A DNA stretch of 64,000 bases from Acidobacteriota bacterium. Its GTDB lineage: Bacteria > Acidobacteriota > Thermoanaerobaculia > Multivoradales > JBCCEF01. Position numbers and translations under genes: made by a program. Position 1 is the first letter of the stretch. Every line of letters begins with the position of its first letter. Location of the stretch: positions 47,018 to 111,017 of the forward strand of contig JBCCEF010000015.1 of the NCBI GenBank assembly GCA_039030395.1, in the 5' to 3' direction. Below the pieces are notes generated by a model that did not search any database, was not told the origin of the DNA, and saw only the letters and a program-made list of their open reading frames with translations. Shown here piece after piece: positions 10,651 through 34,736 of the stretch.

Positions 10651-11439
10651 ATGCTGCGAACGATTCTGCTGATCGGAATTCTGGTTCTGTTAGCCCAACC
10701 GGCCTTCGGTTTCGACCTCGAAAGCGCCCGCATGGTCGACCTGACCCATACCTTGGACGAGGACACCCTCTACTGGCCCACCTCGCCGAGCCGCTTCGAG
10801 AAACAGGAACTCGCCTACGGGCCGACCGCCGCCGGCTGGTTCTACTCCGCCTTCAAAGTGTGCACGCCGGAGCACGGCGGAACGCACCTCGATGCGCCTC
10901 TCCATTTCGCCGAGAACGGTCTGCCGACAGACCGCATACCGCTGTCGCAGCTCATCGCTCCGGCGGTGGTGATCGACGTCGCTGAGAAAGCGGCGAAGGC
11001 TCCGGAATTCGTCCTCAGCCGAAAGGACGTGCAGGCCTTTGAGAAGGCGCACGGCAAGGTACCGGAGGGAGCCATCGTGCTGCTGCGTACCGGCTGGAGC
11101 CGCCACTGGCCGAAAGCCAAGGCCTACCTCGGCGACGACACACCAGGAGATGCCAGCAAGCTGCGATTCCCCAGCTACGGAGCCGAAGCCGCCCGGCTGT
11201 TGGTGGAGGAGCGCAGGGTCGCCCTGCTCGGAGTGGACACCGCCTCCATCGACGTGGGTAGTTCGAAAGACTTCCCGGTCCACCGCATCGCCGCCGCCCG
11301 CGATGTAGGGGGCCTTGAAAACCTTACCGCCCTCGATCAGCTACCCGCCACCGGCGCCTGGGTTCTCGCCTTGCCCCTCAAGATCGGCGGCGGCTCCGGC
11401 GGTCCGGCGCGAGTGGTGGCGCTGGTCCCGGAGTCGTGA
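10651..11439 (+). CDS. Secreted putative cyclase / kynurenine formamidase-like protein
   Basis: Signal peptide MLRTILLIGILVLLAQPAFG. The motif HxGTHxDAPxH (EHGGTHLDAPLHF) is characteristic of the cyclase family (PF04199). Confidence 0.7.
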   Translation: MLRTILLIGILVLLAQPAFGFDLESARMVDLTHTLDEDTLYWPTSPSRFEKQELAYGPTAAGWFYSAFKVCTPEHGGTHLDAPLHFAENGLPTDRIPLSQLIAPAVVIDVAEKAAKAPEFVLSRKDVQAFEKAHGKVPEGAIVLLRTGWSRHWPKAKAYLGDDTPGDASKLRFPSYGAEAARLLVEERRVALLGVDTASIDVGSSKDFPVHRIAAARDVGGLENLTALDQLPATGAWVLALPLKIGGGSGGPARVVALVPES

Positions 11440-12372: not shown

Positions 12373-12739
12373 CCGCCTCTCCTTGTAGATGGGGACTGAA
12401 GTAAAGGGTGGTACCGGAATCCAAAGTCATCACCACCACCGTGCTTTCGGTATCCGGCGCCGAAGGCATCGAGCCCGACGCCCTACCCGATGGAACATCG
12501 TTGCCCAATCGGTCAACCGGTCGGCTCAACCAGAGGGCAACTCCGATCAAAGCGGCTGCAGACCACCACCAAAGTGAACGACGTTGCGGCCTGCGTGGGG
12601 AACGGCCGGGCGGCAAGCGCTGCAGCACCCGCTGCGCCGCTTCCTGAGCTGACATCGAGGGCGCAACCTCACTCCACCGACGCAGGTGTTCAAGAGGATC
12701 CTCTGACCGTTTCTGGTCCACCATTCTTGTGGCCTCCAT
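12353..12739 (-). CDS. Putative membrane-anchored anti-sigma factor (single TM)
   Basis: Immediately downstream of, and overlapping, the ECF sigma gene. One TM helix (SLWWWSAAALIGVALWL). No zinc motif; assignment by position only. Start uncertain (alternative ATG at 12655). Confidence 0.4.
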   Translation of the reverse strand: MEATRMVDQKRSEDPLEHLRRWSEVAPSMSAQEAAQRVLQRLPPGRSPRRPQRRSLWWWSAAALIGVALWLSRPVDRLGNDVPSGRASGSMPSAPDTESTVVVMTLDSGTTLYFSPHLQGEADGQETF

Positions 12740-19624: not shown

Positions 19625-21313
19625 ATGTGCTCCATCCTCGGCATCCTCGACATTCGCAAAGACCCAGAGTCTCTGCGCAGACTCGCCCTCGAGCTGTCCC
19701 TTCGGCAGCGGCACCGCGGCCCCGATTGGAGCGGCATCTACGCCGACGACCGCGCCGTGCTGGCCCACGAACGGTTGGCGATCGTAGACCCACTCGGCGG
19801 CGCCCAGCCCCTGTTGTCGCCAGACGGGCGCTACGTGCTAGCGGTCAACGGCGAAATCTACAACCACCAGGAATTGCGTCGCGACCTGCCCCACCACGAG
19901 TTCCAAACGGCTTCGGACTGCGAGCCGATTCTGGCTCTGCACGCCGCATCGCCGGCGGATCCAGTGCGCTGGCTGGAGACCCTCAACGGGATCTTCGCTT
20001 TCGTGCTTCACGATCGCGAGTCGGGTCGCTGGCTGGCCGCCAGGGATCCGGTGGGTGTGGTACCGCTTTACACGGGCCAGGATGCGGACGGTCAGCGTTT
20101 CTTTGCGTCGGAGATGAAGGCCCTGACCGGCGTCTGCCACCACATCGAGCAGTTTCCACCGGGCTCCTTTCAGACCCGCGAGATGGCCGCGCCGACCCGG
20201 TACTACGCACCCTCGTGGCGTGAGTTCACTGCGGTCGAAGGCCGGCCCTACGAGGCAGCCTCGCTCCGTTCGGCCCTCGATGCCGCGGTGGAGCGGCAGA
20301 TGATGTGCGACGTTCCCTACGGCGTCCTCCTCTCCGGAGGGCTCGATTCATCGCTCATCGCCGCCTTAGCAGCGCGCCATGCTCGGCACCGGATCGAGAC
20401 GGGTGGACGGGAGGAAGCCTGGTGGCCGCAACTCCACTCCTTCGCCATCGGCCTCGCAGGGTCTCCGGATCTCGAAGCCGCCCAGCTCGCGGCGGATGCG
20501 ATCGAAACGGTCCATCATCCATTCACCTTCACCCTTCAGGAAGGCCTCGATGCGTTGCGCTCGGTCATCTACCACCTGGAGACCTTCGACGTCACGACGG
20601 TGCGTGCCTCGACTCCGATGTTCCTGCTGGCGCGGCGCATCAAGGCCATGGGAATCAAGATGGTCCTGTCGGGAGAGGGGGCCGACGAGATCTTCGGCGG
20701 CTATCTCTACTTCCACAAAGCGCCGGACGCCCGCGCCTTCCACGAAGAGACCGTGCGCAAGCTCGATGCCCTCCACATGTTCGATTGTCTTCGCGCCAAC
20801 AAAGCGATGGCCGCTTGGGGAGTGGAGGCACGGGTGCCCTATCTCGATCGCAAGTTTCTCGATATGGCCATGGCCTTCGACCCGATCGAGAAGATGGTTC
20901 GCACGGGACGGATGGAAAAGCACCTCCTTCGCGCCGCCTTCGATGGGGTCCTGCCAGAATCGATCCTCTGGCGACAAAAAGAGCAGTTTTCCGACGGCGT
21001 GGGCTATGGCTGGATCGACGGGCTGCGGGACCATGCCGCGCGGGTGGTGGACGAGAGAGATCTCGCCGCAGCAGCCGAGCGCTTCAACCATGCACCGCCG
21101 ACCACCGCCGAGGGATACCTGTACCGCTCGACCTTCGAAGAGCTCTTCCCCGGCCCAGCACCGGCCGCAACGGTCCCAGGAGGTAAATCGATCGCCTGCT
21201 CGACGCCGGCGGCATTGGAATGGGACGCCTCCTTCGCCGCTGCCGCCGACCCTTCCGGTCGCGCGGTCGATGGGGTGCACAAGGCGTCCTATGGCGGGCC
21301 GAAGGCGAGCTGA
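19625..21313 (+). CDS. asnB: Asparagine synthetase B (glutamine-hydrolysing)
   Basis: N-terminal MCSILGIL (Cys2 nucleophile), GATase-II domain, SGGLDSS PP-loop and full-length collinearity with AsnB. Confidence 0.9.
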   Translation: MCSILGILDIRKDPESLRRLALELSLRQRHRGPDWSGIYADDRAVLAHERLAIVDPLGGAQPLLSPDGRYVLAVNGEIYNHQELRRDLPHHEFQTASDCEPILALHAASPADPVRWLETLNGIFAFVLHDRESGRWLAARDPVGVVPLYTGQDADGQRFFASEMKALTGVCHHIEQFPPGSFQTREMAAPTRYYAPSWREFTAVEGRPYEAASLRSALDAAVERQMMCDVPYGVLLSGGLDSSLIAALAARHARHRIETGGREEAWWPQLHSFAIGLAGSPDLEAAQLAADAIETVHHPFTFTLQEGLDALRSVIYHLETFDVTTVRASTPMFLLARRIKAMGIKMVLSGEGADEIFGGYLYFHKAPDARAFHEETVRKLDALHMFDCLRANKAMAAWGVEARVPYLDRKFLDMAMAFDPIEKMVRTGRMEKHLLRAAFDGVLPESILWRQKEQFSDGVGYGWIDGLRDHAARVVDERDLAAAAERFNHAPPTTAEGYLYRSTFEELFPGPAPAATVPGGKSIACSTPAALEWDASFAAAADPSGRAVDGVHKASYGGPKAS

Positions 21314-21636
21314 CGCGGGACGCGTCAGTACGCCGGCTGGCTGGTCCTCGGCGACCTTCCCTCACAAGTCACCCTCATTGGCGGCGGACTTCCAGTCCTG
21401 GAGATGAACGTAAGCCAACGGACGGGCAAGAGTGTACCCACTCCCCGAGCCTCCCTCCGCTCTGGGTAGCTCTTCCACCGTCAGGCCGTGCGGAGCCTGC
21501 CGAACATCCCGCCTATCGCTTCCAGACTTCTCGCAAGCCAAACGGAGATCCAGCCCCATCCAACCGGGGCGCGGTTATCCTTGCAAGATTCATCGCTACA
21601 TACCTATATCTTACTGAAACTTGCGGAGGGCGCTCA

Positions 21637-22599
21637 ATGCATCTACAGGAAGCGGTAAACCAATTCCTCGCAGGGTACTTTTCGACTCACGCCCGCAGTC
21701 CGAGGACCATCGCGGCCTACAGCAGCGATCTCGACCAATTCGCAGCTCACGTCGAACCGGTCCGCCCCCTGCACTCCATCGGCCCGGTCGACGCGGAATC
21801 GTGGGCGAGCGATCTCAAGTCCCTGGGACTGGCCCCGGCATCGATTCGCCGCAAACTCGCGGTGCTCAAAGTGTTTTTCAACTACTGGGTCCGGCGAGGC
21901 GAGCTGGAGCGCTCGCCCCTCTGGCTGGTGCGTTTCGACATCGGCAAGGTGAAGCCCTTGACCCGAACTCTGACGGTGCGGGAAATGTCCTCTCTCCTCC
22001 ACCAGGCGCGCGCCAGAGCCGAGCCCATCCCGCAGCGTCTCCTGCCTGAAATCGACAAGCGATTCCTCGCCCTGAGGAACTGGGCCATCGTGGAACTCCT
22101 CTTCGCCACCGGAATCCGCGTCGGCGAGGCCACCAGCATCCTCCTCGGCGACCTGATCCTCGACCAGCGAACCATCCTCATCCGCGGCAAAGGAGGGCGC
22201 CAGCGCCTCGCACTCCTGACCGAGAAAACCAGCTATCGGGCCATCACCGCCTACCACCGACAGCGTGTGGCGCAAAGCGCCAGCACCGAGGCGCTCTTCC
22301 TCAACCGCCGCCGCAATCCGCTCTCCACCCAGGGAGTCGCGGGAATGCTCAGCGCCCTGTGCCGCGAGACCGGCATCACCCGCCGGGTGACACCGCACAT
22401 GCTGCGCCACACCGCCGCGACCTTCCTCCTCCACAACGGCGCCGACCTCCGCATCGTGCAGGAGTTCCTCGGCCACGCCTCCATCACGACCACCCAGCGA
22501 TACACGCATGTCAGCCCGTCACACCTGAAAGCCGCACTACTTCGGTTTCATCCTCGTACCGGACTCTGCGCCTGGAAGAAGTCCGAAGCGAACCCGTAG
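21637..22599 (+). CDS. Tyrosine site-specific recombinase (XerC/XerD-like integrase)
   Basis: C-terminal catalytic signature HMLRHTAATFLLHNGADLRIVQEFLGHASITTTQRYTHV (R..H..R..Y) and N-terminal SAM-like domain. RBS ggaggg. Confidence 0.8.
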   Translation: MHLQEAVNQFLAGYFSTHARSPRTIAAYSSDLDQFAAHVEPVRPLHSIGPVDAESWASDLKSLGLAPASIRRKLAVLKVFFNYWVRRGELERSPLWLVRFDIGKVKPLTRTLTVREMSSLLHQARARAEPIPQRLLPEIDKRFLALRNWAIVELLFATGIRVGEATSILLGDLILDQRTILIRGKGGRQRLALLTEKTSYRAITAYHRQRVAQSASTEALFLNRRRNPLSTQGVAGMLSALCRETGITRRVTPHMLRHTAATFLLHNGADLRIVQEFLGHASITTTQRYTHVSPSHLKAALLRFHPRTGLCAWKKSEANP

Positions 22600-22679
22600 C
22601 TCGCCCCACCCATGGAGAGAAGGTCTCAACCAGATTGCTGTGAAAAACATAACTAGAGATTATCGAGCAACAGCAATCC

Positions 22680-23507
22680 ATGATTCCGGTCCCAAAGCCC
22701 CTAGAGCTGGCCTCTCTCGAATGGTTGCTTGCCCATCACGGTGCCAAGGAACTTGACCGCATTGGAGTTGTCAATGACCTAGGAATTGCACCAGACAGTG
22801 ATGTCCTCGACGTCGCTTGTGGTCCCTGTCTATGGACGAATTTACTAGCCGACAAGATCGGACCTTCAGGACGTCTCTACTCCTTGGACCTAAGCATGGA
22901 GTTGCTCGCCTACGGAAAGGGAAGGCTTCGCGAGAGGCCACCTCGAGCGCCAACGACTGTTGTCAGGGCCAATTTTCAAGAACTGCCGTTTCCATCAGCA
23001 TCGTTCGATTGCATATTCTTTAGCAATGGACTCGCCTACGCCGCCAACCCCTTGAAGGCCCTCTACGAACAGAAGCGAGTCGCCCGACCGGGAGGAAGGG
23101 TCGTAGCGAGGCATTGGAACAACTCAGTGACGATCTTTCACCCAGTGCCCGTAGACTTGCTTTTCGAGGTTCAACTAGGGGTTGCCCGATCACTCGAGTC
23201 TCAGGTCGGCACGCCCCTTCGAAATTTTTTTGGCCAAAGGCTTCACGGCCTCTTTCTTGCTGCTGACTTTCAAAGGATCTCGACCAAGACGAGCGCCGTC
23301 CAGTTCCTGGCACCCTTGAGTTCTGATGCCAGAAACTACCTAACAGAAAAAGCTGAATGGATGGGACGCCGAGCCCGACCCTTGATGTCCAGTGGAAATC
23401 ACTCCCGCTGGCTCTCCTATTTCCAGGAAGGTTCGCCCAACTTCATCCTTGATCGGGATGACTTCTATTTCTGCACCATCGAGATCCAGACAACAGGGAG
23501 AACATAG
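22680..23507 (+). CDS. Class I SAM-dependent methyltransferase
   Basis: Motif I VLDVACGPC and motif-II-like SFDCIFFSNGL in low-GC island DNA. Confidence 0.65.
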   Translation: MIPVPKPLELASLEWLLAHHGAKELDRIGVVNDLGIAPDSDVLDVACGPCLWTNLLADKIGPSGRLYSLDLSMELLAYGKGRLRERPPRAPTTVVRANFQELPFPSASFDCIFFSNGLAYAANPLKALYEQKRVARPGGRVVARHWNNSVTIFHPVPVDLLFEVQLGVARSLESQVGTPLRNFFGQRLHGLFLAADFQRISTKTSAVQFLAPLSSDARNYLTEKAEWMGRRARPLMSSGNHSRWLSYFQEGSPNFILDRDDFYFCTIEIQTTGRT

Positions 23508-23508
23508 A

Positions 23509-24474
23509 GTGAGCAGGAAATTCGATCTGGTTCTAACTCCTGAGGAAAGAAAGGAAATTGAGACGAAAGTAAAGGAGATAACGTCAAGAATAACTCAATG
23601 GAAAAGAGATGACTGGATGGATGAAGTCGCGGTCGCTTCCGGAAGTCTACCCGAGAGGATCCGGAGAGCCTTGCGTCGGTTCAAGCGTGAAGAAACCGCG
23701 CCCTGGATTCGGTTGCGCAACCTTCCCTACGAGCCAGGCCAGATACCGCCGACTCCGGTCGAAATCCCGGCCAAGCCACAATCCAAAGAGGTGAGAGCCG
23801 TCGAAGTGATCCAGTGCCTACTGGCTTGTCTCGTTGGAGAACTATTTGGTTGGAGCAGTCACCAGGGGGGATCTGTCATCACAGACATCCTCCCCCAAAA
23901 GGACAAGCTGTCGGAGGCGTCAGGATCGGGCTCTGGAATCGACTTTAGCTTACATACCGAGGACGCCTTTCACCCCAATGCACCTGAGTACCTCGGGCTC
24001 ATCTGTCTACGCAACCATGGCTTGGTACCCACCGTTGTCTCCACCATACTGGATGTAGAACTTAACGAGCACGAGAAAGATATTCTATTCGAACACCGCT
24101 TCATCGTGGGCGTCAATGTCGCGCACGATGCTCCACAACCGTCTGCCCCGACGAGCATCCTTTTCGGAGACCGAAAGCAGCCCTACTTCAGATTCAATGC
24201 CAACCGACAATCAGCGGTACCAGGTGATCAAGCGGCCGCTGAGGCCTTGAAGAAGCTTGAAGCTAGCCTCTGTAATGCCCAGATTGGGATAGCACTCGAA
24301 TCCGGTGACGCTCTATTCATTGACAACTACCGAGTGGCGCATGGCCGCCCCCGATTCAAACCTAGATTTGATGGGACTGACCGCTGGCTAAAGAGGGTCT
24401 TTCTAACCGGTTCTCTTCGCTCATCAAGGGGGTTGAGAGCCAGTTCCTTGAGCCGAGTCATCCTCGCCAGTTGA
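23509..24474 (+). CDS. Clavaminate-synthase-like (TauD/TfdA superfamily) Fe(II)/2-oxoglutarate-dependent oxygenase
   Basis: H-x-E facial-triad motif (LHTEDAFH) and distal DNYRVAHGR motif as in VioC/AsnO-type amino-acid hydroxylases. The GTG start at 23509 sits 2 nt after the methyltransferase stop (assumed). Confidence 0.5.
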   Translation: MSRKFDLVLTPEERKEIETKVKEITSRITQWKRDDWMDEVAVASGSLPERIRRALRRFKREETAPWIRLRNLPYEPGQIPPTPVEIPAKPQSKEVRAVEVIQCLLACLVGELFGWSSHQGGSVITDILPQKDKLSEASGSGSGIDFSLHTEDAFHPNAPEYLGLICLRNHGLVPTVVSTILDVELNEHEKDILFEHRFIVGVNVAHDAPQPSAPTSILFGDRKQPYFRFNANRQSAVPGDQAAAEALKKLEASLCNAQIGIALESGDALFIDNYRVAHGRPRFKPRFDGTDRWLKRVFLTGSLRSSRGLRASSLSRVILAS

Positions 24475-24475
24475 T

Positions 24476-27400
24476 CTACTCCTCGCTCGTCGCGCCGAGC
24501 GCATAGAGCACAGATTGTTGCCCTCTCGTGAGGCCCTTGCTGCCCTTGAGCCTCAGTCCCTCGTAAGGCCTTGGAGCGATCATCGTCTTAACTAGGTTGC
24601 CGGTCTCTAGTTCGAAAATGTCGAGTTCCCCTGTCGCCGTACTCGCGCACAGCGAATCGCCATTTCCGACTGGGCAGACTGCTTGATAGACGTTCCGTGG
24701 GGATCGAATCACAAGATCCACCTCGCCACTTGTCAGATCCCACGCCTCAAGGGTGCCCGAGGAGGTGCAAAGAAAAAGCTTCTTCCCCAGGGCATCGAAC
24801 ATGACGGCAGTTGGGACTCCGGAAACCGGAGAAATCGTAAGGCTTTCAATGCGCCGAACGACATCCCAGATCGCGAGCCCTGACGAAGTCGCGACCGCAA
24901 AGAGTCTGCTGCTCTTAGCCACTGCGAATGGCGAGAGCTTTCCCCTAACGCCGTCAAAGTCGAGTTCAACTCTGAAAACCTCGGATCGCTCGTCCATAGA
25001 CCAGAAGCGAACGGATGAGTCGTCACCGGAGCTGACCAAGAGGCCTTCCTTCTCGAAAACAGCGACACCATGCACTCTGTCTTCGTGACCATGAAAGGCG
25101 CTAACGAGCTTCCCGGTGTGAGTGCTCCACAGTTTGACAACGGGATCTCTGTTGGAACTCCCGGTGGCCAGCAACTTTCCGCTGGTGCTCAGATCGACCG
25201 ATAGAATCCAGTCGTCGTGTGCCCTTATTCGAGCGACCTCGACGACATCAGTTTCGGTCCAGATCTTCAAGCGCTTGTCGCTACCGCCGCTGACAACAAG
25301 GCCGTGAGTTGCTGAAAGAGCCCAAATGCGTCCACGGTGCGATCCTCGACTCTCTAGGCAGGCCCCAGTATCAATATTCCACTTTCGCACGATCCCATCG
25401 TCACCTCCGCTCAGGATGCAACCGCTCTCTGTTCCAGGCACGATAGACCAAATAGAGTTGGAGTACCCGCGCAGTGAGCCAATCTTGGAACCGTCGTGCA
25501 CATCCCAGATCTTAAGGGCCTGATCTTGGCCGACGGATGCGAGCCTATCTCCATTGGGGAAGAATTTCAGGGCGCGTACCGTTCCGTCGTGCGCATTGCC
25601 AATGGTGTTCACGCAGTCGCCGCTACTCGTGGACCAGATTTTGACGGTTCTGTCTCTACTAGCAGTCGCCAAGAGATCTCGATCAGGGCTAAGAGTCACG
25701 TCCCAGATCCAACTCGAATGCCCCCTAAACTCGCAAACCAATCGGGACGAGCTAAGTTCCCAGAGGCGAGCACAGCAATCAAAACCTGCAGTGGCAAGAG
25801 TGGCGCCCTCCTTATCCAGATCTATGGAAGAGATCCAGTCAGAATGACCCTCAATATGGCGCTCAACCTGCCCGGTTTGAAGGTCGATCACCCGTATCGT
25901 GCCGTCACTGCTTCCTGAAATCACTTTAGACGCTCCGGGGATTACCTGGACCGCCCTGGTCCTACTTCCGAAGGGGCCGAACTCCTTTAAACATGTACCC
26001 GTTCGCCACTCCCAAACTCGAACCGTTCCATCCTCTCCTCCACTGACAACATGTCTTCCGCTCGTATCGAAGACAGCGGAGTTGACCCAGCTCTGATGCC
26101 CAATCAGAGTGGCTTCGCAGAAATAGTCCCTCAGTGCCCAGACTCGGACGGTTTGATCCTCACTGGCGCTGACTAGGAATCGACCATCAGGCGAAAACTC
26201 TACCGACCGGATCCAGCCGACATGGCCTTCGAGCATCGCCAGTGGCTCTTGGTCTTCGACCTTCCAGAGATGGATCACGCCCTTCGTGTCGCCGCAGGCT
26301 AGAGTCTGACCGTCCAATGTCATTGCGACGCAGTGAATGTGTCCAAACTGGCTCCGAAAGCGAACCTGTCTCAGCGTTGAGTAAGCAAGAGAGGTATTCC
26401 GCAGGTCAACCGATTGGAAGTCAACCTGCCGCACCACCAGATGGGACAGATCAAGATTCGACAGGTCGCCAAGAATCTCGATTAAGAGAGAGATCAGATT
26501 CCCGGCCACATAATCCTCTCTCGTTTCTTCTCGGCATTGACCCAACAAGTCTACAAGCAGGCTGGACAATTCATCGCGGAGAAGACCTTGCTCCTCGAAC
26601 CACTCAACAATGGGGCGCAGAATGAGCCGGCGCTGACTTCGTCGAACATAGCTCTTACTAGTCGATTTGATCAAGGCAAACCTTCGGAGCAAGTCGAATG
26701 ATGAGTCGTCGGCAAATTCTCTCTTGACTTCACTGGCCAACTTCCGGCCGATGAAGCGACCTACCCAAGATGGACTGAGCCGAATTTCATCGCCAATCTG
26801 CTGGACAAACCTACGCGTGAGATAGTCGAGTAGAACCGGCTGGAGCCCAATCCGAAGCCGCTTTCTTTCCAGGGGCATGAGTCGTTGAAGGGTATGAACC
26901 GTGCTCGCCAGTTGCTTCCTTGCATCCGATGAGAGAAGATCATCTCGAAGCTCTGGCAGAGCAACCGGCTCACGATCAATCGCAAGCCAATAAAGAACCT
27001 CCAGCTCCATCTTCGAAAGGCGCGATACATGCCAATTCAAGAGTGACTCCAGGTCCAGTATGGTCAACTCTGCTTGGTTGAGAAACTCTCGTATGTCGCC
27101 CCGATAGACAGACTGGATATGACGCGCGGCGAGCTCCAAAGCAAGGGGGTTTCCATCATAGAACTCAATCAACTTCCTCCACTCTTGGTCGCTGGCGGAG
27201 AACTTTCCGATCTCTTCGAAGATTTTCTTTCCGTTATAGACATCCAACCCCCTGAGCAATAGCGTCCGCACCGGTCTGTTATCTCCCTCCAACTTCTCAA
27301 TCTGCCTGGGCTTCTCCCTGCTGGTGAGAATCACGCAGCCCCTATGCTCAAGTTGGCCCAGGGTTAGAATCAGACGAGAGAAGGAGCTGGACGAGGCCCC

Positions 27401-28420
27401 GGTAGTCTCAACGTCACCGGAAGACATGACGGATTCAAAGTTGTCGAGGATCAGCAGTATTTTTTCGGACTTCAAGCAGTCGGCAAGGTCTTCCACAGAG
27501 CTGCGACTCCTTGAAGTCTCGTCGGCTTCCGGACTCCAGTGGTTTACACCGGCCAGGATGCTCTCCACTAATTCCTCTACTGTGGGTGCGCCGACCAAGG
27601 ACCGCCAGATGACCTTGTCGAAACTATACTGGGCGTTTTTCGCGTAGGTTCTTGCAAGACTTGTCTTGCCCAGTCCTCCCCTACCGAATCGGGCCGATAG
27701 CCTTGTTTTGCCTATTCCCCCGAACCCCAGAACCAGCAGGAGTCGTACGTCGTCTTCATGAACCCAACGCTCAAGAATTCTCAGTTCTTGGTCGCGACCG
27801 AATAACTGTCCATTCTCCGGGATACTGGGCCAGTCTTGGTACTGGCCCGTTGTTCGTTGTCGGTGCAGAGTGAATAGGTCGGCGTTCCCCGCTCCTTCAA
27901 GAGCGACAGCGGTTCTTCCTAGTTCAAAAGCAAATCCAATGTCTTTGTTGTTAGCGATCGCATCGTAAAATGCCACCGAGAATGCACTGGCTGTTCGATC
28001 TCGGACAGCGCTGGTCGTCCCGATGACATATTTTATCGATTGAGCTATGGCAGACGCTTGGTCTGCCGAGTAACACGAGTTCAGTAGAACGCACCTGAGA
28101 CCTGGCGAGAAGAGAGAAAAGAGATCAGCGAGCGCGTCACGATCGACGAGTTTCGCAACTCCATCGTCGTCCTCCAACACAAGGCCGTCGTCATTGCCAT
28201 GCGCGGAGATGTGCAAGTACTCGGGTTGATGCTCCAGAAGCGCGCGCCTTAGATCCATCGTTCGAGTAGCCCATCTCTGTTGGAGGCGCAATCGGCTTCT
28301 TGTGCGAGTCAGACTCTCTTGGATTTCTCGAAATTCTACATCCAAACGCAGGCTCTCTGGACCCGTCGGATTCGCTGCGACGTACAGAATGGTAGGTCGT
28401 TCTTCGTACGACGAAGACAT
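24476..28420 (-). CDS. STAND NTPase: N-terminal CHAT (caspase-like His-Cys protease) domain, NB-ARC/NACHT-type ATPase, C-terminal WD40 beta-propeller array (~14 repeats)
   Basis: CHAT dyad motifs LHISAHGNDDG and CVLLNSCYSADQA. P-loop GFGGIGKT followed by a second GRGGLGKT. Walker B LLILDNFE, then GCVILTSRE and GNPLALE (NB-ARC hhhTSR and GxP motifs). Many WD repeats (...HxxxVxSVxFSPDGxxLxSxSxDxTVRVW...). Confidence 0.8.
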   Translation of the reverse strand: MSSSYEERPTILYVAANPTGPESLRLDVEFREIQESLTRTRSRLRLQQRWATRTMDLRRALLEHQPEYLHISAHGNDDGLVLEDDDGVAKLVDRDALADLFSLFSPGLRCVLLNSCYSADQASAIAQSIKYVIGTTSAVRDRTASAFSVAFYDAIANNKDIGFAFELGRTAVALEGAGNADLFTLHRQRTTGQYQDWPSIPENGQLFGRDQELRILERWVHEDDVRLLLVLGFGGIGKTRLSARFGRGGLGKTSLARTYAKNAQYSFDKVIWRSLVGAPTVEELVESILAGVNHWSPEADETSRSRSSVEDLADCLKSEKILLILDNFESVMSSGDVETTGASSSSFSRLILTLGQLEHRGCVILTSREKPRQIEKLEGDNRPVRTLLLRGLDVYNGKKIFEEIGKFSASDQEWRKLIEFYDGNPLALELAARHIQSVYRGDIREFLNQAELTILDLESLLNWHVSRLSKMELEVLYWLAIDREPVALPELRDDLLSSDARKQLASTVHTLQRLMPLERKRLRIGLQPVLLDYLTRRFVQQIGDEIRLSPSWVGRFIGRKLASEVKREFADDSSFDLLRRFALIKSTSKSYVRRSQRRLILRPIVEWFEEQGLLRDELSSLLVDLLGQCREETREDYVAGNLISLLIEILGDLSNLDLSHLVVRQVDFQSVDLRNTSLAYSTLRQVRFRSQFGHIHCVAMTLDGQTLACGDTKGVIHLWKVEDQEPLAMLEGHVGWIRSVEFSPDGRFLVSASEDQTVRVWALRDYFCEATLIGHQSWVNSAVFDTSGRHVVSGGEDGTVRVWEWRTGTCLKEFGPFGSRTRAVQVIPGASKVISGSSDGTIRVIDLQTGQVERHIEGHSDWISSIDLDKEGATLATAGFDCCARLWELSSSRLVCEFRGHSSWIWDVTLSPDRDLLATASRDRTVKIWSTSSGDCVNTIGNAHDGTVRALKFFPNGDRLASVGQDQALKIWDVHDGSKIGSLRGYSNSIWSIVPGTESGCILSGGDDGIVRKWNIDTGACLESRGSHRGRIWALSATHGLVVSGGSDKRLKIWTETDVVEVARIRAHDDWILSVDLSTSGKLLATGSSNRDPVVKLWSTHTGKLVSAFHGHEDRVHGVAVFEKEGLLVSSGDDSSVRFWSMDERSEVFRVELDFDGVRGKLSPFAVAKSSRLFAVATSSGLAIWDVVRRIESLTISPVSGVPTAVMFDALGKKLFLCTSSGTLEAWDLTSGEVDLVIRSPRNVYQAVCPVGNGDSLCASTATGELDIFELETGNLVKTMIAPRPYEGLRLKGSKGLTRGQQSVLYALGATSEE

Positions 28421-29158
28421 ACTGATAATCTCTAGTTATCGGTGTGACGCGTGAGGAGCCCTATGCGCGCCGCACACTTATCGTCTTAATTGAATTGAAG
28501 AATTAGGAGCGCACTAAAGATTATGCAGCCTCGGTGGCCACCTCGTCAAGATACAGATTCTCAAAGCTCAGGACCTTCGCCAGGAATCACCTTCCCCGAT
28601 CGTTGAACACCGCCCTTCCGACGGCCTCAATCCCACTCGAGTGGATTGCCTTATATTGATAAACTACAGATATTCTGTGAAATATATTATATGGATCAAT
28701 CTGCGAGGAGATTGTCTTCCCACTGACTGGTACTCGGCGAACTGCTCGCATACCGCCCTCGCTCCGGCGAGTTCGCGCTCCTGGGGGCAATCGTCCACCT
28801 GAAGGCCGGAGGGGCAGCCGATGCATCCATCCCGGCGTCCCTGCGTCGTGACGCCGACCTGACCGTAACCCCTCCCCCCTGGACTTCTCGCATCCGCCCA
28901 TTCACTTCCGCTTCGACCCACGGCTCTCCCGCTCCGCTGCGCCTATCTATTTGAGTCCGCTGGGTTAGCAGGCTGAGCTGGGTGTTCGGCCGACAAAAAC
29001 TCGACGCCAGGATCCTCTACAGGCGCCTTGCCTCGGCTGACGAGATCTGCTAAGTTGCTGGGAGTAATTACTTTAAGTCTGCCTCGCACCGTTTCCTCGA
29101 AGTCGACGACGGTTTCCGAAGCAGCGGCTTGGCGGACCGCCTGAAAGAGAGGGACCCG

Positions 29159-31006
29159 ATGTCTCTTCGTTCGCCGCGCCTATGGATGGTCGCCGCCCTG
29201 GCCATGCCAGGGATCTTGATCGCCTTCGGCAGTCCGCAGGTGAGCGCCCGCGCCACCCCGCAGGAACCCAGCTCCGAGATTGAGTCCCCAACCGTAGGGG
29301 AGGTCCCGCCGGAATCCGGCGAGGCTGCCTCCTTGAGCGCCGATGAGGAGCACGCGGCGCTGTTCCTGGAGAACCGCTTTCCGGCAGCCACCACCTGCGC
29401 AACGTGCCACCCGGATCACTACCGCGAGTGGTCCGTTTCGCCACATGCCTATGCCCAGATGAGCCCGGTGTTCAACGCCATGCACGGCACCATCCTGAAG
29501 CTCACCAACGGCACCAACGGCGACTTCTGCATCCGCTGCCACACGCCGGTGGGCATGAATTTGGGCGAACCGGAGTTCATCAGCAACCTGGACCGCCACC
29601 CAACCTCCCGCGAGGGAGTGACCTGCGTGGTGTGCCATCGCATCAACCAGCCCTACGGCAAGCTCTCCGGCCGGCTGGCGATCGTCGAGGGCGATCTTTT
29701 CGAACCGGTCTACGGCCCGAGCGGCAACGACGAGCTCCAGCGGGTGATCGAGAGCGACCAGTTCCGGGTCAACACCGAACGGGGGCGCGCCGGGCGGGCG
29801 ATCCACACCCGGTCGGAGAAGTTCTTCCAAATTTCGACTTCCGGCCTATGCGCCACCTGCCACGATGTGAATCTGGTCAACGGATTCCGCCTGGAGGAGG
29901 CGTTCAGCGAATTCAAGACCTCGCCGGCGGCGGAGAACGGCACCTCCTGCCAGGACTGCCACATGAGCACCGTACCGGGAGTCGATTCGGGCTATGCCCA
30001 GGGACCGGCGGCGGTGGTTGGCGGCAAGGCGACGGCGATCCGCAAGCGGACCGATCATATGTTCATCGGCCCGGACTATTCGGTGGTCCACCCGGGGATC
30101 TTCCCGCACAACCCACAGGCTTCGGAGCTGGCGACGTTGCGCGAGTGGCTGACCTTCGATCACGAAGCCGGTTGGGGCACCGATGCCTTCGAAGCGGAAC
30201 TGCCGGAGGCCTACGAGTTCCCGGACCGCTGGCGGGCCGCCGACGACCGCTATGACGCCCGCGACATCTTGAACGACAACCAGGCGCTGTTGGCCGAGGC
30301 CCACGAACAACGTCGCGAGATCTTGCGCGCCGGCTACCAGCTCGGCAAGCTGGTGGTCGACAGGGCCGACGCGAAGGGCCTGGCTTTCCGGGTGGAAGTG
30401 AAGAACGGCACCGACGGCCACGGCGTGCCCACCGGATTCGACGCCGAACGACTGGTGTTCCTGCACACCACCGTGCGCGACGCCGACGGCCGGGTGGTCT
30501 TCGAGTCCGGCGACCTCGACCCCAACGGCGACGTGCGCGACAGTCACTCGCTGTACGTCCACAACGGAGAGCTGCCGCTCGATCGGCAGCTGTTCAGCCT
30601 GCAGTCGAAGTTCATCACCCGCATGGTGCGGGGGGGCGAACGGGAGCAGGTGCTGGCGGTCAACTATTCGCCGGATCCGCTGCCCTTCCTGCGCCCTTCC
30701 ACCTCCTCCACCATTCTCACCGGCCGGCCGCGGGGCGCCCGCAAGCACAAGCAGAACATCGAACCCTTGGGTAGCCGCTGGGCCGAGTACAAGGTGCCGG
30801 CGTCAGCCCTCGACGGTCGCGGTCCATACACCGTCCACGTCGAGATCAAGGCCGGCATGATCCCGGTGAATCTGATCCACGAGATCAAGGACGTGGGCTT
30901 CGACTACGGCTTGAGCGCCCGGGAAGTGGCCGAGCGGGTGGTCGACGGGCATCTCACCCTGTGGGAGCGCGAACACACCATCGAACTCGACCGACCGGGC
31001 GGCTGA
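29159..31006 (+). CDS. Secreted multiheme c-type cytochrome (5 CxxCH)
   Basis: Signal peptide MSLRSPRLWMVAALAMPGILIAFG. Heme motifs CATCH, CIRCH, CVVCH, CATCH, CQDCH. RBS agagaggga. Confidence 0.8.
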   Translation: MSLRSPRLWMVAALAMPGILIAFGSPQVSARATPQEPSSEIESPTVGEVPPESGEAASLSADEEHAALFLENRFPAATTCATCHPDHYREWSVSPHAYAQMSPVFNAMHGTILKLTNGTNGDFCIRCHTPVGMNLGEPEFISNLDRHPTSREGVTCVVCHRINQPYGKLSGRLAIVEGDLFEPVYGPSGNDELQRVIESDQFRVNTERGRAGRAIHTRSEKFFQISTSGLCATCHDVNLVNGFRLEEAFSEFKTSPAAENGTSCQDCHMSTVPGVDSGYAQGPAAVVGGKATAIRKRTDHMFIGPDYSVVHPGIFPHNPQASELATLREWLTFDHEAGWGTDAFEAELPEAYEFPDRWRAADDRYDARDILNDNQALLAEAHEQRREILRAGYQLGKLVVDRADAKGLAFRVEVKNGTDGHGVPTGFDAERLVFLHTTVRDADGRVVFESGDLDPNGDVRDSHSLYVHNGELPLDRQLFSLQSKFITRMVRGGEREQVLAVNYSPDPLPFLRPSTSSTILTGRPRGARKHKQNIEPLGSRWAEYKVPASALDGRGPYTVHVEIKAGMIPVNLIHEIKDVGFDYGLSAREVAERVVDGHLTLWEREHTIELDRPGG

Positions 31007-32607
31007 CGCACTTGAAAGCGCTGCGCCCCCTGTTTCTCCCAGCGCTTGCGGCGCTGCTCCTTGCGGTCCCCATGGCGGCGGACGGCGTGGGTGCGGCCGG
31101 CGGCGAGAGGAAAACCGATCCCCCGAAGGAAGACTCCGCCGCGGAGCATCCCTCCGAGATGGAAGGCAGCGAGGAAGGCAGCCATGGGGAAGACGCCCAT
31201 GGCGAGGACGGGCATGGTGCCGAAGCGCACGGAGAAGATGCCCATCACGGCAAGAAAGGCGGACACCACAGTAGTCGGCTGACCGACGAGCGCATTCCTC
31301 TGCGGGTCGAGAATGTGCCGGAGCGGCCCAAACCGCTGCTCGAACTGGGCGAGCCGTTCCTCGGCTCCGGCACCTTGAAGCCGGGCTTCCGCTTGCCCAC
31401 CGGCGCCGTTTGGCAGCCTTCGCTGCTGGTGTTCGGAACCTTGCGCACCGCCGCCCAGACCTTCGAGAACCCGGCCGGTCGGGTGAGCGAGGTCGCCACC
31501 CGGCTCGATCTCTTCGCCAACCTCCAGCTCTCCGGCACGGAGCGGCTGGTGGTGGGCTTCCGGCCTTTGGACCAGGACGGCCGATTCACCTCCTACGTCT
31601 TCGAATCGGATCTGCCGGGGGTCGACGAGAGCGACTTCTCGGACGAATTCAACGGCGAGATCACCAGCTTGTTCTTCGAGGGCGACTTCGGCGAGATCTT
31701 TCCCAACCTGTCGCGCGACGACTTTTCGCCGACGGACGTCGGCTTCTCCGTCGGCCGCCAGCCGCTGCTGTTCCAGGAGGGGCTGTTGATCAACGACGCC
31801 ATCGACGGCGTGGGCGTCACCCGCAACACCCTGCAGCCGGCCAGGTCCTCGAACTTCCGGGCGACGCTTTTCTGGGGCTGGAACGATGTCGGGCGCCCTG
31901 GGGTGGGCGGCAATCCGGAGGACGACGACGCGCAGCTCGTCGCCCTGCTGACCTCCGCCGACCTACGCCGTTCGACCATCGACGCGGATCTCGCCTGGGT
32001 GCTGTCGGACACCCGGGGCAACGGGGCTCTGCGCTCCGGCGGCGATCTGATCGCCGGCGGCGTCAGCTTCACCCAGCGCATCGGCCTGTTCAACACGTCT
32101 TTTCGCCTCCTCGGGTCCCTCGCCGACGAAGAGACGGTGAGCGCCGGTGAGGGCTTGCTGCTGTTCTCGGAGGTTTCCCGCACGCCCCATCACACCCACG
32201 ACCTTTTGTACTTCAACACCTTTCTGGCGGTGGACCGCTTCACCTCCGCCGCCCGCGGGCCGGCCACCGGCGGGCCGTTGGGGCGCGCCGGCATTAACTT
32301 CGCCGCCGTCGGCCTGGGGCGCTACGGCGCCGCCCTATCGAGCCAGGCCCAGGACGTGGCCGGCGGCGCCGTGGGCTATCAACGCTTCTTCGACCACACC
32401 CGCAAGCAGCTCATCGTCGAGGTCGGGGCACGAGTGGGGACGGATTCCTCCATCGCCGATGCGATCGCCGCCACCGGCCGCTACCAAGCCGCCGTCGGTC
32501 GCCGTTTCGTCCTGCGGACGGAGGCTTTCGCCGGCCTGCGCCGCGACCCCGGCGGCTCCGACGAGGAACTCTTCGGCGGTCGCTTCGAGGTGCTTCTCAA
32601 GTTTTGA
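30961..32607 (+). CDS. Predicted outer-membrane beta-barrel (porin-like) protein with N-terminal His/acidic repeat region
   Basis: Signal-like LKALRPLFLPALAALLLAVPMAADG. HGED-type His-rich repeats. Amphipathic alternating pattern, and it ends in ...RFEVLLKF (a terminal aromatic residue is typical of outer-membrane barrels). Start ambiguous (GTG 30961 overlapping the upstream gene, or TTG 31012). Confidence 0.55.
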   Translation: MGARTHHRTRPTGRLTHLKALRPLFLPALAALLLAVPMAADGVGAAGGERKTDPPKEDSAAEHPSEMEGSEEGSHGEDAHGEDGHGAEAHGEDAHHGKKGGHHSSRLTDERIPLRVENVPERPKPLLELGEPFLGSGTLKPGFRLPTGAVWQPSLLVFGTLRTAAQTFENPAGRVSEVATRLDLFANLQLSGTERLVVGFRPLDQDGRFTSYVFESDLPGVDESDFSDEFNGEITSLFFEGDFGEIFPNLSRDDFSPTDVGFSVGRQPLLFQEGLLINDAIDGVGVTRNTLQPARSSNFRATLFWGWNDVGRPGVGGNPEDDDAQLVALLTSADLRRSTIDADLAWVLSDTRGNGALRSGGDLIAGGVSFTQRIGLFNTSFRLLGSLADEETVSAGEGLLLFSEVSRTPHHTHDLLYFNTFLAVDRFTSAARGPATGGPLGRAGINFAAVGLGRYGAALSSQAQDVAGGAVGYQRFFDHTRKQLIVEVGARVGTDSSIADAIAATGRYQAAVGRRFVLRTEAFAGLRRDPGGSDEELFGGRFEVLLKF

Positions 32608-34736
32608 TCAGCCAGGCGCTCGTGCCCCCTTCAGCCCGCCGGAAATCCCACCGGCGGGGATCTCCGTGGTTGCGAGGTGCAGGCGTTTTAGTCGCCCTTG
32701 GGACGCCCATTGCGCTGTGGGGCCAGGTCACCGGCGACGAGGAGTTCACCCGCGAACCGCCGGAGAAGATCGTCACCGCCGAGGCCTGCGGCGAATGCCA
32801 CATCTCGGAGTTCGAGGTGTGGAAGAAGACCCCCCACGCCACCGGCTTCAAGACCCTGCACCGCACCGAAGCCGCCGAGGCGATCGCCCAGAAGATGGGA
32901 TTCCGACTGATGAAGCGCGACAGCCTGTGCCTCCAGTGCCACTACACGCCAGAGGTGCGGAACGATCAACTGCGGGCCGTCTCCGGAGTGTCCTGTGAGT
33001 CCTGCCACGGCGCCGGCCGCGACTGGATTGACCTCCACAACGACTACGGTTCGGGGTTCGACCACGCCACGGAACCGGCCGAACACCGCCTAGAGCGCAT
33101 CGCCGCCAGCCGCGCCGCCGGCATGCGCCGACCGTCGGATCTCTACGGCGTCGCAACGAGCTGCATGGGCTGCCACACGGTGCCGAACGAAAAGCTGGTG
33201 AACATCGGCGGCCACACCACCGGCAGCTCCGGCTTTGAGCTGGTTGAGTGGTCCCAGGGCGACATCCGCCACAATTTCTTGCAGTCCTTCTTGACTGGCG
33301 ACGGCACCGAGAACCGCGAGCACACGGCGCCGGAGAAGCGGCCGATGTATGTCCTAGGCCGGCTGGTCGAACTCGAATACGCACTGCGCGCCGCAGCGGA
33401 AGCGTCGGAGCCCGGCACCTACGCCCGCGCCGTCGGCCGACGGGTCAAGACCTCGACTCTCGAGCTGCGGAAGATCGGCCAGATCGCCGAGATCCCGGAG
33501 ATCGGCGCGGCGGTGGCGGTGGTGCGCGGAGTCCAGGTAGTGCCCGGCAACGGCACGGCGCTGCGGGCGGCGGCGGACGAACTGGGCGCCATCGCCCGGC
33601 GCTTCGCCGACGACCGCGAGCCGGCGGTCCAGTTGGCGAGTCTCGATCCGCTGATCCGGGGCGAGGCGATCGCGCTTCCGGAGCCCGAGGTGCAAGTGGC
33701 GGCGGCGACCACGTCGGGGGAAGGCGATCCCGGCACGGTGGCCACGGCGACTTCGGACCCGGGCGATGGCTCCGGCGGCGCTACATCCACAACCGCCACC
33801 GCCAACACCGTCACCGTCAACCCCGGCCGGCCGGTGGTGGGCGAGGCGCGGCGTACCATCCGCCCGTCGGCGCGCCACCGCACCCTCGGCCCCGGCGCTT
33901 GTAGCGGCTGCCACGGCGAGGCCAACGACTGGTGGGCCGGCGACGCCCACTACCGCTCGGCCGAACCTTTCTTCAGCCGCTCGCCGGAGGCGGTACGCAT
34001 CGCCACCCTCTACGGTGTTCCCTTGAACCGTATGGTCACCGGCACCGCCCTGTGCATGAACTGTCACGGCACGGTGGTCTCCGGCAGCGAGAGTTTCGAG
34101 GTGTTCGACGGAGCGAGCTGCGAGAGCTGCCATGGACCGGCGGCAGACTACATCGAAGCCCACAAGGAGGGCGACAAGGCGCTCGGCACCGCGCGGCCCG
34201 GCTACCGCAACGCACTGCGGCTCGGGATGACGGAGCTCCAGAACCTCACCACCCGCGCTGAAACGTGTACGAGCTGCCACTACATCACCGATCGCAGGCT
34301 GCTCTCGTCGGGCCATCCTTCCGGCGAGGGTTTCGACTACGTCGCCGCCATGAACAAGATTCGACACTGGCCGGACCCCGCCGGCGCCGGCACCATCCGT
34401 CCGGCCTTCAACAGCGTCTTGGCGAAGCGCGGGCCGGTGCCGGAGGTGCCCTTGGGCGAGCTGCCGGAAACGGTGCTGGCGGAGGCCACCGCCGCGGCCG
34501 CTTCCACCGTCAACAGCCGCCCCACCGGTGGCAGCTGGAACCGCCCGCGGCCGGCCGGCCCTGCCGCCCGCGGCGCCACCGTTGTCCCCCCGATCACCAG
34601 CCGGAGCCGTGCCCCCGGTACTCCCGTGGAACTGCCGCCCTTCCCCACCATCGATGCGTCGACGACGATCGAAGACACTCTGCTGCTGATCAAGCAGCGG
34701 CTGGAGCTGGTCTACGACGCGGTGCGGCCCCAATAA
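32604..34736 (+). CDS. Multiheme c-type cytochrome (8 CxxCH) with internal Thr/Ser/Gly-rich linker
   Basis: CGECH, CLQCH, CESCH, CMGCH, CSGCH, CMNCH, CESCH, CTSCH. Low-complexity linker at ~33700-33830. TTG start overlapping the upstream stop (TTGA); start uncertain. Confidence 0.8.
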   Translation: MISQALVPPSARRKSHRRGSPWLRGAGVLVALGTPIALWGQVTGDEEFTREPPEKIVTAEACGECHISEFEVWKKTPHATGFKTLHRTEAAEAIAQKMGFRLMKRDSLCLQCHYTPEVRNDQLRAVSGVSCESCHGAGRDWIDLHNDYGSGFDHATEPAEHRLERIAASRAAGMRRPSDLYGVATSCMGCHTVPNEKLVNIGGHTTGSSGFELVEWSQGDIRHNFLQSFLTGDGTENREHTAPEKRPMYVLGRLVELEYALRAAAEASEPGTYARAVGRRVKTSTLELRKIGQIAEIPEIGAAVAVVRGVQVVPGNGTALRAAADELGAIARRFADDREPAVQLASLDPLIRGEAIALPEPEVQVAAATTSGEGDPGTVATATSDPGDGSGGATSTTATANTVTVNPGRPVVGEARRTIRPSARHRTLGPGACSGCHGEANDWWAGDAHYRSAEPFFSRSPEAVRIATLYGVPLNRMVTGTALCMNCHGTVVSGSESFEVFDGASCESCHGPAADYIEAHKEGDKALGTARPGYRNALRLGMTELQNLTTRAETCTSCHYITDRRLLSSGHPSGEGFDYVAAMNKIRHWPDPAGAGTIRPAFNSVLAKRGPVPEVPLGELPETVLAEATAAAASTVNSRPTGGSWNRPRPAGPAARGATVVPPITSRSRAPGTPVELPPFPTIDASTTIEDTLLLIKQRLELVYDAVRPQ

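Follow-up and report, generated by a model that had tools for sequence, protein, structure and literature searches.

A STAND NTPase with a fused CHAT protease domain in a recombinase-linked, probably invertible cassette of an Acidobacteriota bacterium

Closest described systems

A 2026 survey of the prokaryotic STAND NTPases describes bacterial Apaf-1 orthologues, which carry WD40 propeller sensors and N-terminal caspase-like proteases (PMC13581612, Nature 2026). Furthermore, caspase genes are linked with AP-ATPase genes in bacterial operons and conflict systems, and the effector-associated domain (EAD) adaptors were introduced in the same work (PMC8195603). Here, we analyze a protein of this kind from an Acidobacteriota bacterium, encoded on a stretch of 64,000 nucleotides (contig JBCCEF010000015.1 of assembly GCA_039030395.1, positions 47,018 to 111,017), which we call the window. 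The gene starts with ATG, occupies positions 24476..28420 on the minus strand and codes for 1314 amino acids, as indicated by the list of open reading frames (ORFs) and Pfam. From the N- to the C-terminus, the protein is composed of a CHAT/caspase-fold domain, an NB-ARC ATPase and 14 WD40 repeats. A bacterial relative of Apaf-1 carrying its own caspase-like protease is an architecture already described, and our protein is a divergent new member. On balance, we lean toward reading the locus as an Apaf-1-type STAND switch with a fused CHAT protease, placed within a recombinase-inverted cassette that makes the sensor phase-variable, both parts being taken together.

Apaf-1/CED-4 and the bacterial Apaf-1 orthologues share with our protein the succession of an NB-ARC (AP-ATPase) module and WD40 propellers, the latter as the sensor. 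Unlike Apaf-1, whose ligand is cytochrome c, the protein has a fused short CHAT domain, a tandem Walker A motif, a Walker B of the form LDN, and a pentapeptide-like linker before the WD40 repeats. Its N-terminal domain has its best match, in structure as well as in sequence, in the SAVED-CHAT protease of Haliangium ochraceum (8tl0), which is associated with type III CRISPR, and the His and Cys residues align. The sensor of SAVED-CHAT is a cA3-binding SAVED domain, whereas here we find a STAND ATPase and WD40 repeats. In addition, the SAVED-CHAT substrate, PCaspase, is encoded nearby, but no such partner lies beside the STAND gene. The EAD-CHAT effectors (Kaur et al. 2020, 2021; PMC8195603) use the same short CHAT module, 40-54% identical to ours, as the effector, yet they are tethered to a STAND NTPase through EAD10/EAD11 adaptors. 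In our protein, protease and NTPase form one polypeptide, so that an adaptor is not needed.

For the cassette, the nearest documented logic would be, by analogy, the expression-site switching carried out by Xer-like recombinases in Mycoplasma. In the Xer1/vpma, Mbr/vsp and HvsR/vsa systems, a Xer-like recombinase adjoins the locus and the recombination sites lie just upstream of start codons, for Xer1 between -1 and -72 of each vpma start codon (PMC2268961). Inversions put alternative genes behind fixed expression signals in these systems, as may hold for our locus. In contrast to the many paralogous lipoprotein genes of Mycoplasma, each cassette of our type has two unrelated convergent units. 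Furthermore, its site is a conserved one of 15-18 bp, within which the stop codon of the recombinase and the ATG of the cassette often fall, and several phyla share the layout.

The G segment of phage Mu (Gin) and the R64 shufflon (Rci) are also invertible; each lies between inverted repeats, has alternative coding units that converge, and adjoins its recombinase gene. Both swap C-terminal parts, of the tail fibre and the pilus tip respectively, behind a constant N-terminal part, and Gin is a serine recombinase. Here, instead, whole unrelated genes would be swapped. Integron cassettes and the pdif modules of Acinetobacter are compositionally foreign, exchangeable, and tied to a tyrosine recombinase site, and pdif modules are bounded by inverted Xer sites. 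The cassette differs from both in that the recombinase is not IntI and is encoded at the cassette, no attC structure is present, and the site has 15-18 bp with a 7-nt centre, as against the 28-bp XerC/XerD site. We found no description of the conserved site, of the swapping of whole unrelated genes, or of STAND NTPases in such cassettes, within a searchable literature that is incomplete. A systematic inversion survey (PMC9881135) accepted repeats from 22 bp upward, provided that one lay inside a coding sequence, and would therefore have missed such cassettes.

The STAND protein and its fused CHAT domain

An earlier note on this DNA had proposed a CHAT, NB-ARC and WD40 architecture. This was borne out, with PF12770 and PF00931 above their Pfam cut-offs and the WD40 models exceeding theirs. 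The WD40 and other beta-propeller models matching residues ~690-1200 swamp the Pfam output of the whole protein, and for this reason the N-terminal 692 residues were scanned as two pieces. All of the motifs named in the earlier note were located: SAHG (with His74), LNSCYS (with Cys116), LLILDN (residues 322-327), ILTSRE (364-369), and GNPLAL (423-428). The exact protein is also carried by an independent Logan contig (SRR22824298_78336, run SRR22824298).

The CHAT domain covers residues ~9-187 (27860..28396, minus strand), as delimited by Pfam, alignment, AlphaFold2 and Foldseek, and contains His74 and Cys116. The Pfam model PF12770 matched residues 27-161 with 32.2 bits (cut-off 24, E 9.5e-8). 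A search with residues 1-190 gave 35 relatives of 37-54% identity, most of them short proteins of 160-330 amino acids, and several bear EAD10 or EAD11, or HEAT or pentapeptide modules. Asp56, His70, Asn114, Cys116 and an FxxxFY motif are invariant over 36 relatives, while at least 90% of them keep His74.

The AlphaFold2 model of residues 1-200, built on the alignment of the relatives, had a pLDDT of 93.1 and a pTM of 0.88. Its top Foldseek match against the PDB was the SAVED-CHAT filament 8tl0 (TM 0.81, rmsd 2.4 Å, 24% identity, E 1.9e-15), followed by caspase-11, caspase-4, CED-3, gingipain, MALT1 and separase. The profile of the 36 relatives matched 8tl0 at E 4.4e-33, and GHG and NAC align with the catalytic H375/C422. 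By alignment, with a constant numbering offset of 20, His74 and Cys116 thus correspond to H375 and C422 of SAVED-CHAT, the two residues replaced in its catalytically dead mutant H375A/C422A (bioRxiv 10.1101/2023.06.23.546230). The outcome that the earlier note had named as refuting, no caspase fold or no aligned His/Cys dyad, was therefore not obtained, and the N-terminal domain looks like a competent CHAT protease. Judging from its sequence relatives, the module likely acts as an effector, since the nearest CHAT relatives are fused to EAD10/EAD11.

The CHAT domain is followed by an NB-ARC oligomerisation module at residues ~205-560 (26741..27808, minus strand), which was defined by Pfam, the AlphaFold2 model, and the Walker B (LLILDN), sensor-1 (ILTSRE) and GNPLAL motifs. 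With 43.8 bits against a cut-off of 23.5, NB-ARC (PF00931) was the best Pfam match within residues 206-692. The earlier note had described an ATPase of NB-ARC/NACHT type; the NB-ARC part of this description holds. The NACHT part does not, since PF05729, by which a bNACHT protein would be recognised, was missing from the matches of these residues at E values up to 1. A phmmer search of the PDB sequences with residues 201-700 gave no match.

The Walker A motif occurs twice in tandem. Motif inspection placed the duplication at residues 232-253 (GFGGIGKTRLSARFGRGGLGKT; 27662..27727, minus strand), with GFGGIGKT at 232-239 and GRGGLGKT at 246-253, and the full segment reads LVLGFGGIGKTRLSARFGRGGLGKTSLA. 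It is no artefact: 55 of the 120 closest homologues keep this duplication, typically in the form GMGGIGKTxLSxKLGxGGIGKTDLSL, while more remote homologues have a single copy. In the AlphaFold2 model of residues 196-620 (pLDDT 78.7), residues 234-250 fall below 50 and helix alpha-1 begins after the second GKT. No published description of a tandem Walker A duplication was found. The Walker B is also unusual, with LDN instead of DD or DE.

The 14 WD40 repeats, each of ~42 amino acids, span residues 691-1270 (24611..26350, minus strand) according to Pfam and the repeat count. This agrees with the array of about 14 blades given in the earlier note. The repeat pattern suggests that the array is probably folded into two seven-bladed propellers, which would serve as the sensor. 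A faint pentapeptide-repeat signal was detected by Pfam immediately N-terminal to the array. The protein ends with a conserved tail, RPYEGLRLKGSKGLTRGQQSVLYALGA (residues 1284-1314; 24479..24571, minus strand), recognised by comparison with the homologues P0026, P0053 and P0104. The form RPYEGxxhxGxxGLT...LGA of this tail is common to cyanobacterial NB-ARC-WD40 proteins.

The protein is only 38% identical to the nearest database protein. Five matches bear a CHAT domain (P0001, P0006, P0007, P0033 and P0064; query coverage 64-100%), and the best of these with full coverage is a fragment of 38% identity. The other closest homologues are cyanobacterial NB-ARC-pentapeptide-WD40 proteins of ~1190 amino acids, which lack the CHAT domain and cover ~72% of the query. 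In Candidatus Parabeggiatoa (L003, 6338-7678), a DUF1822/TRADD-N-like gene stands directly before the CHAT-NB-ARC homologue; the site described below is absent there and the context is different.

The prevalence of these cyanobacterial homologues speaks for a role outside defence, in which the protein would be a protease under regulation that serves in developmental cell death, in stress signalling or in the discrimination of kin, as discussed for the large NB-ARC-WD40 families of filamentous cyanobacteria. Two of the JGI matches, P0086 and P0103, share one contig of 9.3 Mb, which fits genomes with more than one copy, and neither PADLOC nor the flanking genes point to phage-defence neighbours. 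Nevertheless, we regard this as the improbable case, because the nearest CHAT relatives bear effector-associated domains typical of conflict systems and the gene is part of mobile, low-GC, recombinase-linked DNA.

The recombinase-linked cassette and its counterparts

The STAND gene lies in a cassette of 5.8 kb, bounded by a perfect inverted repeat of 16 nt. The left arm (ATAACTAGAGATTATC, 22649..22664) was found by repeat search and fits the consensus of 24 sites described below, and the same search gave the right arm (28424..28439; GATAATCTCTAGTTAT on the plus strand). Even when 3 mismatches were allowed, the repeat had 2 matches in the 64 kb, with 0.01 expected. The arms coincide with a step in GC content, and what they enclose is precisely the low-GC DNA, with three genes and no more. 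The low-GC island reported in the earlier note is real: between positions 23001 and 29000 the GC content of the segments scanned is 53-55%, compared with ~61-72% elsewhere and ~65% for the genome.

On the outer side of the left arm, separated from it by 49 nt, ends a gene for a Xer-like tyrosine recombinase of 320 amino acids (21637..22599, plus strand; Pfam, with the start as called on Logan contig L087, which carries the exact product). It matched Phage_integrase with 144.7 bits as well as Phage_int_SAM_1. The NCBIfam models XerC and XerD gave 224 bits each, below their cut-offs of 335 and 330. The earlier note had placed an integrase next to the STAND gene, as in a defence island. A tyrosine recombinase is indeed present, but it is Xer-like rather than a conventional island integrase, and its own site flanks the cassette as an inverted repeat. 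We also considered whether the copies might be the att sites of an integrative island or a dif site, and rejected this because they are inverted, not direct, and the recombinase lies outside the bounded segment. For the same two reasons an integron was rejected, and the integrase_gron model TIGR02249 gave 81.6 bits against a cut-off of 265.

Both arms abut start codons. The left arm is followed after 15 nt by the ATG of a class I SAM-dependent methyltransferase of the UbiE/COQ5 type (22680..23507, plus strand, 275 amino acids), which matched Methyltransf_11, Methyltransf_25 and Ubie_methyltran; all of its NCBIfam matches were under the cut-offs. The second gene of this unit encodes a Fe(II)/2-oxoglutarate hydroxylase of the VioC/GntD/clavaminate-synthase group (23509..24474, plus strand, 321 amino acids; TauD PF02668, start as in the gene call on contig L001). 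With 275.7 bits for the GntD model (cut-off 345) and 214.9 for the VioC model (cut-off 418.6), it is a homologue of the arginine/enduracididine beta-hydroxylases. The hydroxylase and STAND ORFs converge, with a single base between their ends at 24474 and 24476. At the other end of the cassette, the right arm read in the sense orientation lies 3 nt from the STAND ATG and contributes a Shine-Dalgarno-like GAGA element.

The same arrangement recurs elsewhere. In the closest CHAT-NB-ARC homologues (L002, L004 and L005), which were picked on protein similarity alone, the recombinase site is again found just upstream of the ATG, and in two of these loci an inverted copy and a recombinase gene are visible as well. 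Among 80 loci with recombinase homologues of 30-51% identity, an ATAA-N7-TTAT core, mostly ATAACTAGGAATTAT, occurs at or over the recombinase stop codon in 28. An exact inverted core follows 1.1-5.8 kb downstream in 13 of these 28, and variant cores add at least three, giving at least 16. Without exception, such loci have two convergent units, with starts abutting or inside the arms and 3' ends abutting or overlapping, and the enclosed DNA is often poorer in GC than its flanks. The consensus of 24 aligned sites is CGATAAC-TAGGA-ATTATC, in which ATAA and ATTAT are invariant. As a search pattern, the motif takes the form CGATAACNNNNNATTATC, paired with its inverted copy.

In total, about 20 loci from at least four phyla follow one plan, consisting of a recombinase, a site at its 3' end, two convergent units, and an inverted site (L006, L007, L023, L034, L039, L040, L051, L056-L059, L069, L073, L078, L079, L086, L094, L002, L004 and L089). 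The hosts are Acidobacteriota, Pseudomonadota (alpha, beta and gamma), Actinomycetota, Campylobacterota, and one deltaproteobacterial metagenome-assembled genome. In many of them, the site itself contains the stop codon of the recombinase gene and the start codons of the cassette. For example, on the complete plasmid pMRAD01 of the cultured strain Methylobacterium radiotolerans, where the cassette region is 401.1-405.6 kb, the repeat ATAATCGGGGATTATGG holds the recombinase TAA and both cassette ATGs, and the complete plasmid pACRY43158 of cultured Aliarcobacter cryaerophilus has a 19-nt repeat of the same type. Plasmid recombinases of the Roseobacter group and Bradyrhizobium (~35-38% identity) were set aside, since the cassette plan is absent there. 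The exact 18-mer had no match in IMG/VR.

The enzymes encoded in these cassettes are varied and include ATP-grasp proteins with or without a YbaK-like protein, aminotransferase, FAD oxidoreductase, methyltransferase, PAP2 phosphatase and GT4 glycosyltransferase. As their partner one often finds a large ATPase of the AAA_16/TPR or nSTAND-like kind, a membrane protein, or a protein of the pentapeptide-CHAT type. Of ten cassette proteins from the other loci, none was recognised by PADLOC, which gave a single faint mad8 match. The composition of the cassettes is foreign, and they may thus possibly be exchanged between platforms. Two loci have more complex structures: in L056 an inverted repeat of 113 nt (10828-10940 / 12620-12732) includes the 3' end of the recombinase gene, and in L089 (4911-12139) the cassette lies upstream of the recombinase gene, with an extra site after that gene. 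Arrays or nested rearrangements of cassettes therefore seem to occur.

One pair of genes recurs over distant taxa. An ATP-grasp protein resembling D-Ala-D-Ala ligase, sometimes together with a YbaK-like protein, is combined with an AAA_16/TPR ATPase of ~820 amino acids in L034, L040, L059, L086 and L089, and by homology also in L023, L039 and L094. PADLOC gives no system for this pair, which may be an undescribed two-gene system. A metagenome scan with a two-sequence alignment of the ATPase returned three loci, L089 among them; a five-sequence alignment was too divergent for such a scan, and a tblastn search of plasmids with the large Methylobacterium ATPase found only itself.

Recurrence of this kind, in at least seven loci, is what would be expected if both units of a cassette formed one co-expressed system, in which the STAND protein senses a small molecule or a protein modification that the enzyme produces, takes away or imitates, or in which the enzyme acts as its antidote or immunity partner. 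The combination of one enzyme with one non-enzyme partner in each cassette fits this picture too. We find it rather unlikely, because related CHAT-NB-ARC proteins have unrelated partners (methyltransferase and hydroxylase in our locus, a GT4 glycosyltransferase in L002 and L004), and genes expressed together are not usually laid out as convergent units with abutting stop codons.

Three lines of indirect evidence suggest that the cassette is probably invertible by the recombinase. Homologous cassettes are found in both orientations. In the cassette with YbaK-like, ATP-grasp and ~810-aa proteins, the enzymes adjoin the recombinase in L023 and L039, and the large protein does so in L094, the Aliarcobacter plasmid. 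Furthermore, six assemblies stop within the core or 0-9 nt past it (L021, L024, L033, L045, L053 and L077), among them two of cultured isolates, Burkholderia sp. WAC0059 (L033) and Ralstonia sp. A12 (L045). Contigs ending at the site suggest structural heterogeneity in the sequenced populations. At our own locus, the contig of run SRR22824298 with asnB and the recombinase (L087) includes the left arm and stops precisely at its inner edge. The cassette contig (L001) overlaps this left-flank contig by 30 nt (k-1), and its other end is exactly the outer edge of the right arm. A k=31 graph should break in this way at both arms if the reads also include the junction of left flank, inverted repeat and STAND gene, and the graph obtained is in this respect consistent with one inverted junction.

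Several observations weigh against an inverting cassette of this kind. The reciprocal inverted junction was not seen in the Logan graph, in which the right-flank contig was not retrieved because the right-flank genes had no exact product. In 9 of 10 scorable cassettes, the gene for the large ATPase or STAND protein lies on the side away from the recombinase, so that the equilibrium of inversion would have to be strongly biased or inversion rare, and in L004 and L089 the recombinase points away from the cassette. In addition, a sigma-70-like promoter match (TTGACG-18-CATAAT; 28520..28549, minus strand) lies outside the right arm and is aimed into the STAND gene, which it could drive in the present orientation. 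Flipping therefore need not be an on/off switch and may swap promoters instead. This is a consensus match only, the sole one in 8 kb where shuffles gave 3.3, and the same scan found none inside the cassette beside the arms.

The same facts could be read as signs of a static cassette, with the STAND protein being a stand-alone, constitutive, Avs-like anti-phage sensor and the repeats being ends or capture scars of a cassette that was moved but never recombined here. Low GC and exchangeable, cassette-like content do indicate mobility, the external promoter-like site faces the STAND gene, the orientation of this gene is nearly constant across loci, and the reciprocal junction was not seen. Still, we give this explanation a small share of the probability. 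Against it stand the start codons embedded at both arms, the recombinase stop codons inside the site in many loci, the homologous cassettes in both orientations, and the contig breaks that seven independent assemblies show precisely at the site. Furthermore, recombination between inverted sites alone cannot insert or excise a cassette.

The surroundings of the cassette are unremarkable. To its right, ~690 nt (28440-29128) lack a convincing ORF, have AT-rich stretches, and hold the sigma-70-like match. They are followed by a cluster of multihaem c-type cytochrome genes (29129-34736), which belongs to ordinary respiratory chromosome DNA. Asparagine synthase, amidohydrolase and AraC regulator genes also flank the cassette. 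No Rfam family was detected in 21000-29500 and no tRNA in the window.

Proposed mode of action and meaning

The earlier note had assigned the gene to a defence island and compared the protein with the antiviral Avs/bNACHT-like sensors and with gasdermin-activating proteases. Pfam and PADLOC gave no gasdermin match, in agreement with its statement that neither a gasdermin nor another obvious substrate gene is adjacent. The remaining points found no support. PADLOC, which the note had recommended, recognised no known defence system, and no Avs, bNACHT or gasdermin system among them. For the STAND protein itself, it returned a weak chat match (1.6e-6), HEAT-ARM_XIII over the WD40 region, a faint mad8 match, and nothing else. 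Together with the housekeeping flanks, the lack of a recognised system indicates that the locus is no ordinary defence island. These results count against our preferred interpretation, as do the duplicated Walker A and the LDN Walker B, which make the nucleotide cycle uncertain, and the fact that we found no experimental tests of any member of the clade in the literature. A defence or cell-death role is nonetheless plausible, on the strength of what is known of the family.

If the Apaf-1-type reading is correct, the directly fused CHAT cysteine protease would stand in for the death-fold adaptor of animals. At rest, the double WD40 propeller and a bound nucleotide would hold the protein monomeric and the protease inactive. 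The propellers would then bind a ligand, most likely a foreign or stress-derived macromolecule, which would permit nucleotide exchange and oligomerisation of the NB-ARC modules. Clustering of the CHAT domains in the oligomer may activate the His74/Cys116 dyad by induced proximity, by analogy with SAVED-CHAT, where oligomerisation in the form of filaments activates the protease (bioRxiv 10.1101/2023.06.23.546230). The active protease would cut cellular targets encoded elsewhere, leading to growth arrest, death or the release of a signal. A precedent for such targets comes from type IV Thoeris, a system with a caspase-like protease at its core, in which EF-Tu is cleaved. On the DNA level, the recombinase would invert the cassette, and the flanking expression signals would be swapped between the STAND unit and the unit of methyltransferase and hydroxylase. 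As a consequence, the expression of a potentially lethal sensor would become phase-variable.

A broader proposal, which we put forward tentatively and hold to be less probable than the reading of our own locus, is that several phyla share an undescribed genetic toggle and cassette-exchange platform, made up of the Xer-like recombinase, the CGATAAC-TAGGA-ATTATC site and the cassette with its two convergent units. Such a toggle would alternate between a STAND death or immune sensor and an enzyme modifying the envelope or a metabolite.

As a divergent, non-cyanobacterial member of the bacterial Apaf-1-like proteins, the STAND protein could be a compact model for the apoptosome-type activation of a fused protease. 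If the cassette flips, the recombinase would subject a potentially suicidal sensor to stochastic control. In that case, the site would be the mark of a platform that crosses phyla, can be searched by an 18-bp motif, and carries gene pairs missed by the libraries of defence systems. This platform is present in culturable strains, namely Methylobacterium radiotolerans JCM 2831, Aliarcobacter cryaerophilus ATCC 43158, Pelomonas aquatica KCTC 42961, Burkholderia sp. WAC0059 and Ralstonia sp. A12. If the toggle proposal holds, it would mean population-level bet-hedging of a costly immunity, and a reservoir of unrecognised two-gene conflict systems, for example that of the ATP-grasp protein and the AAA_16/TPR ATPase.

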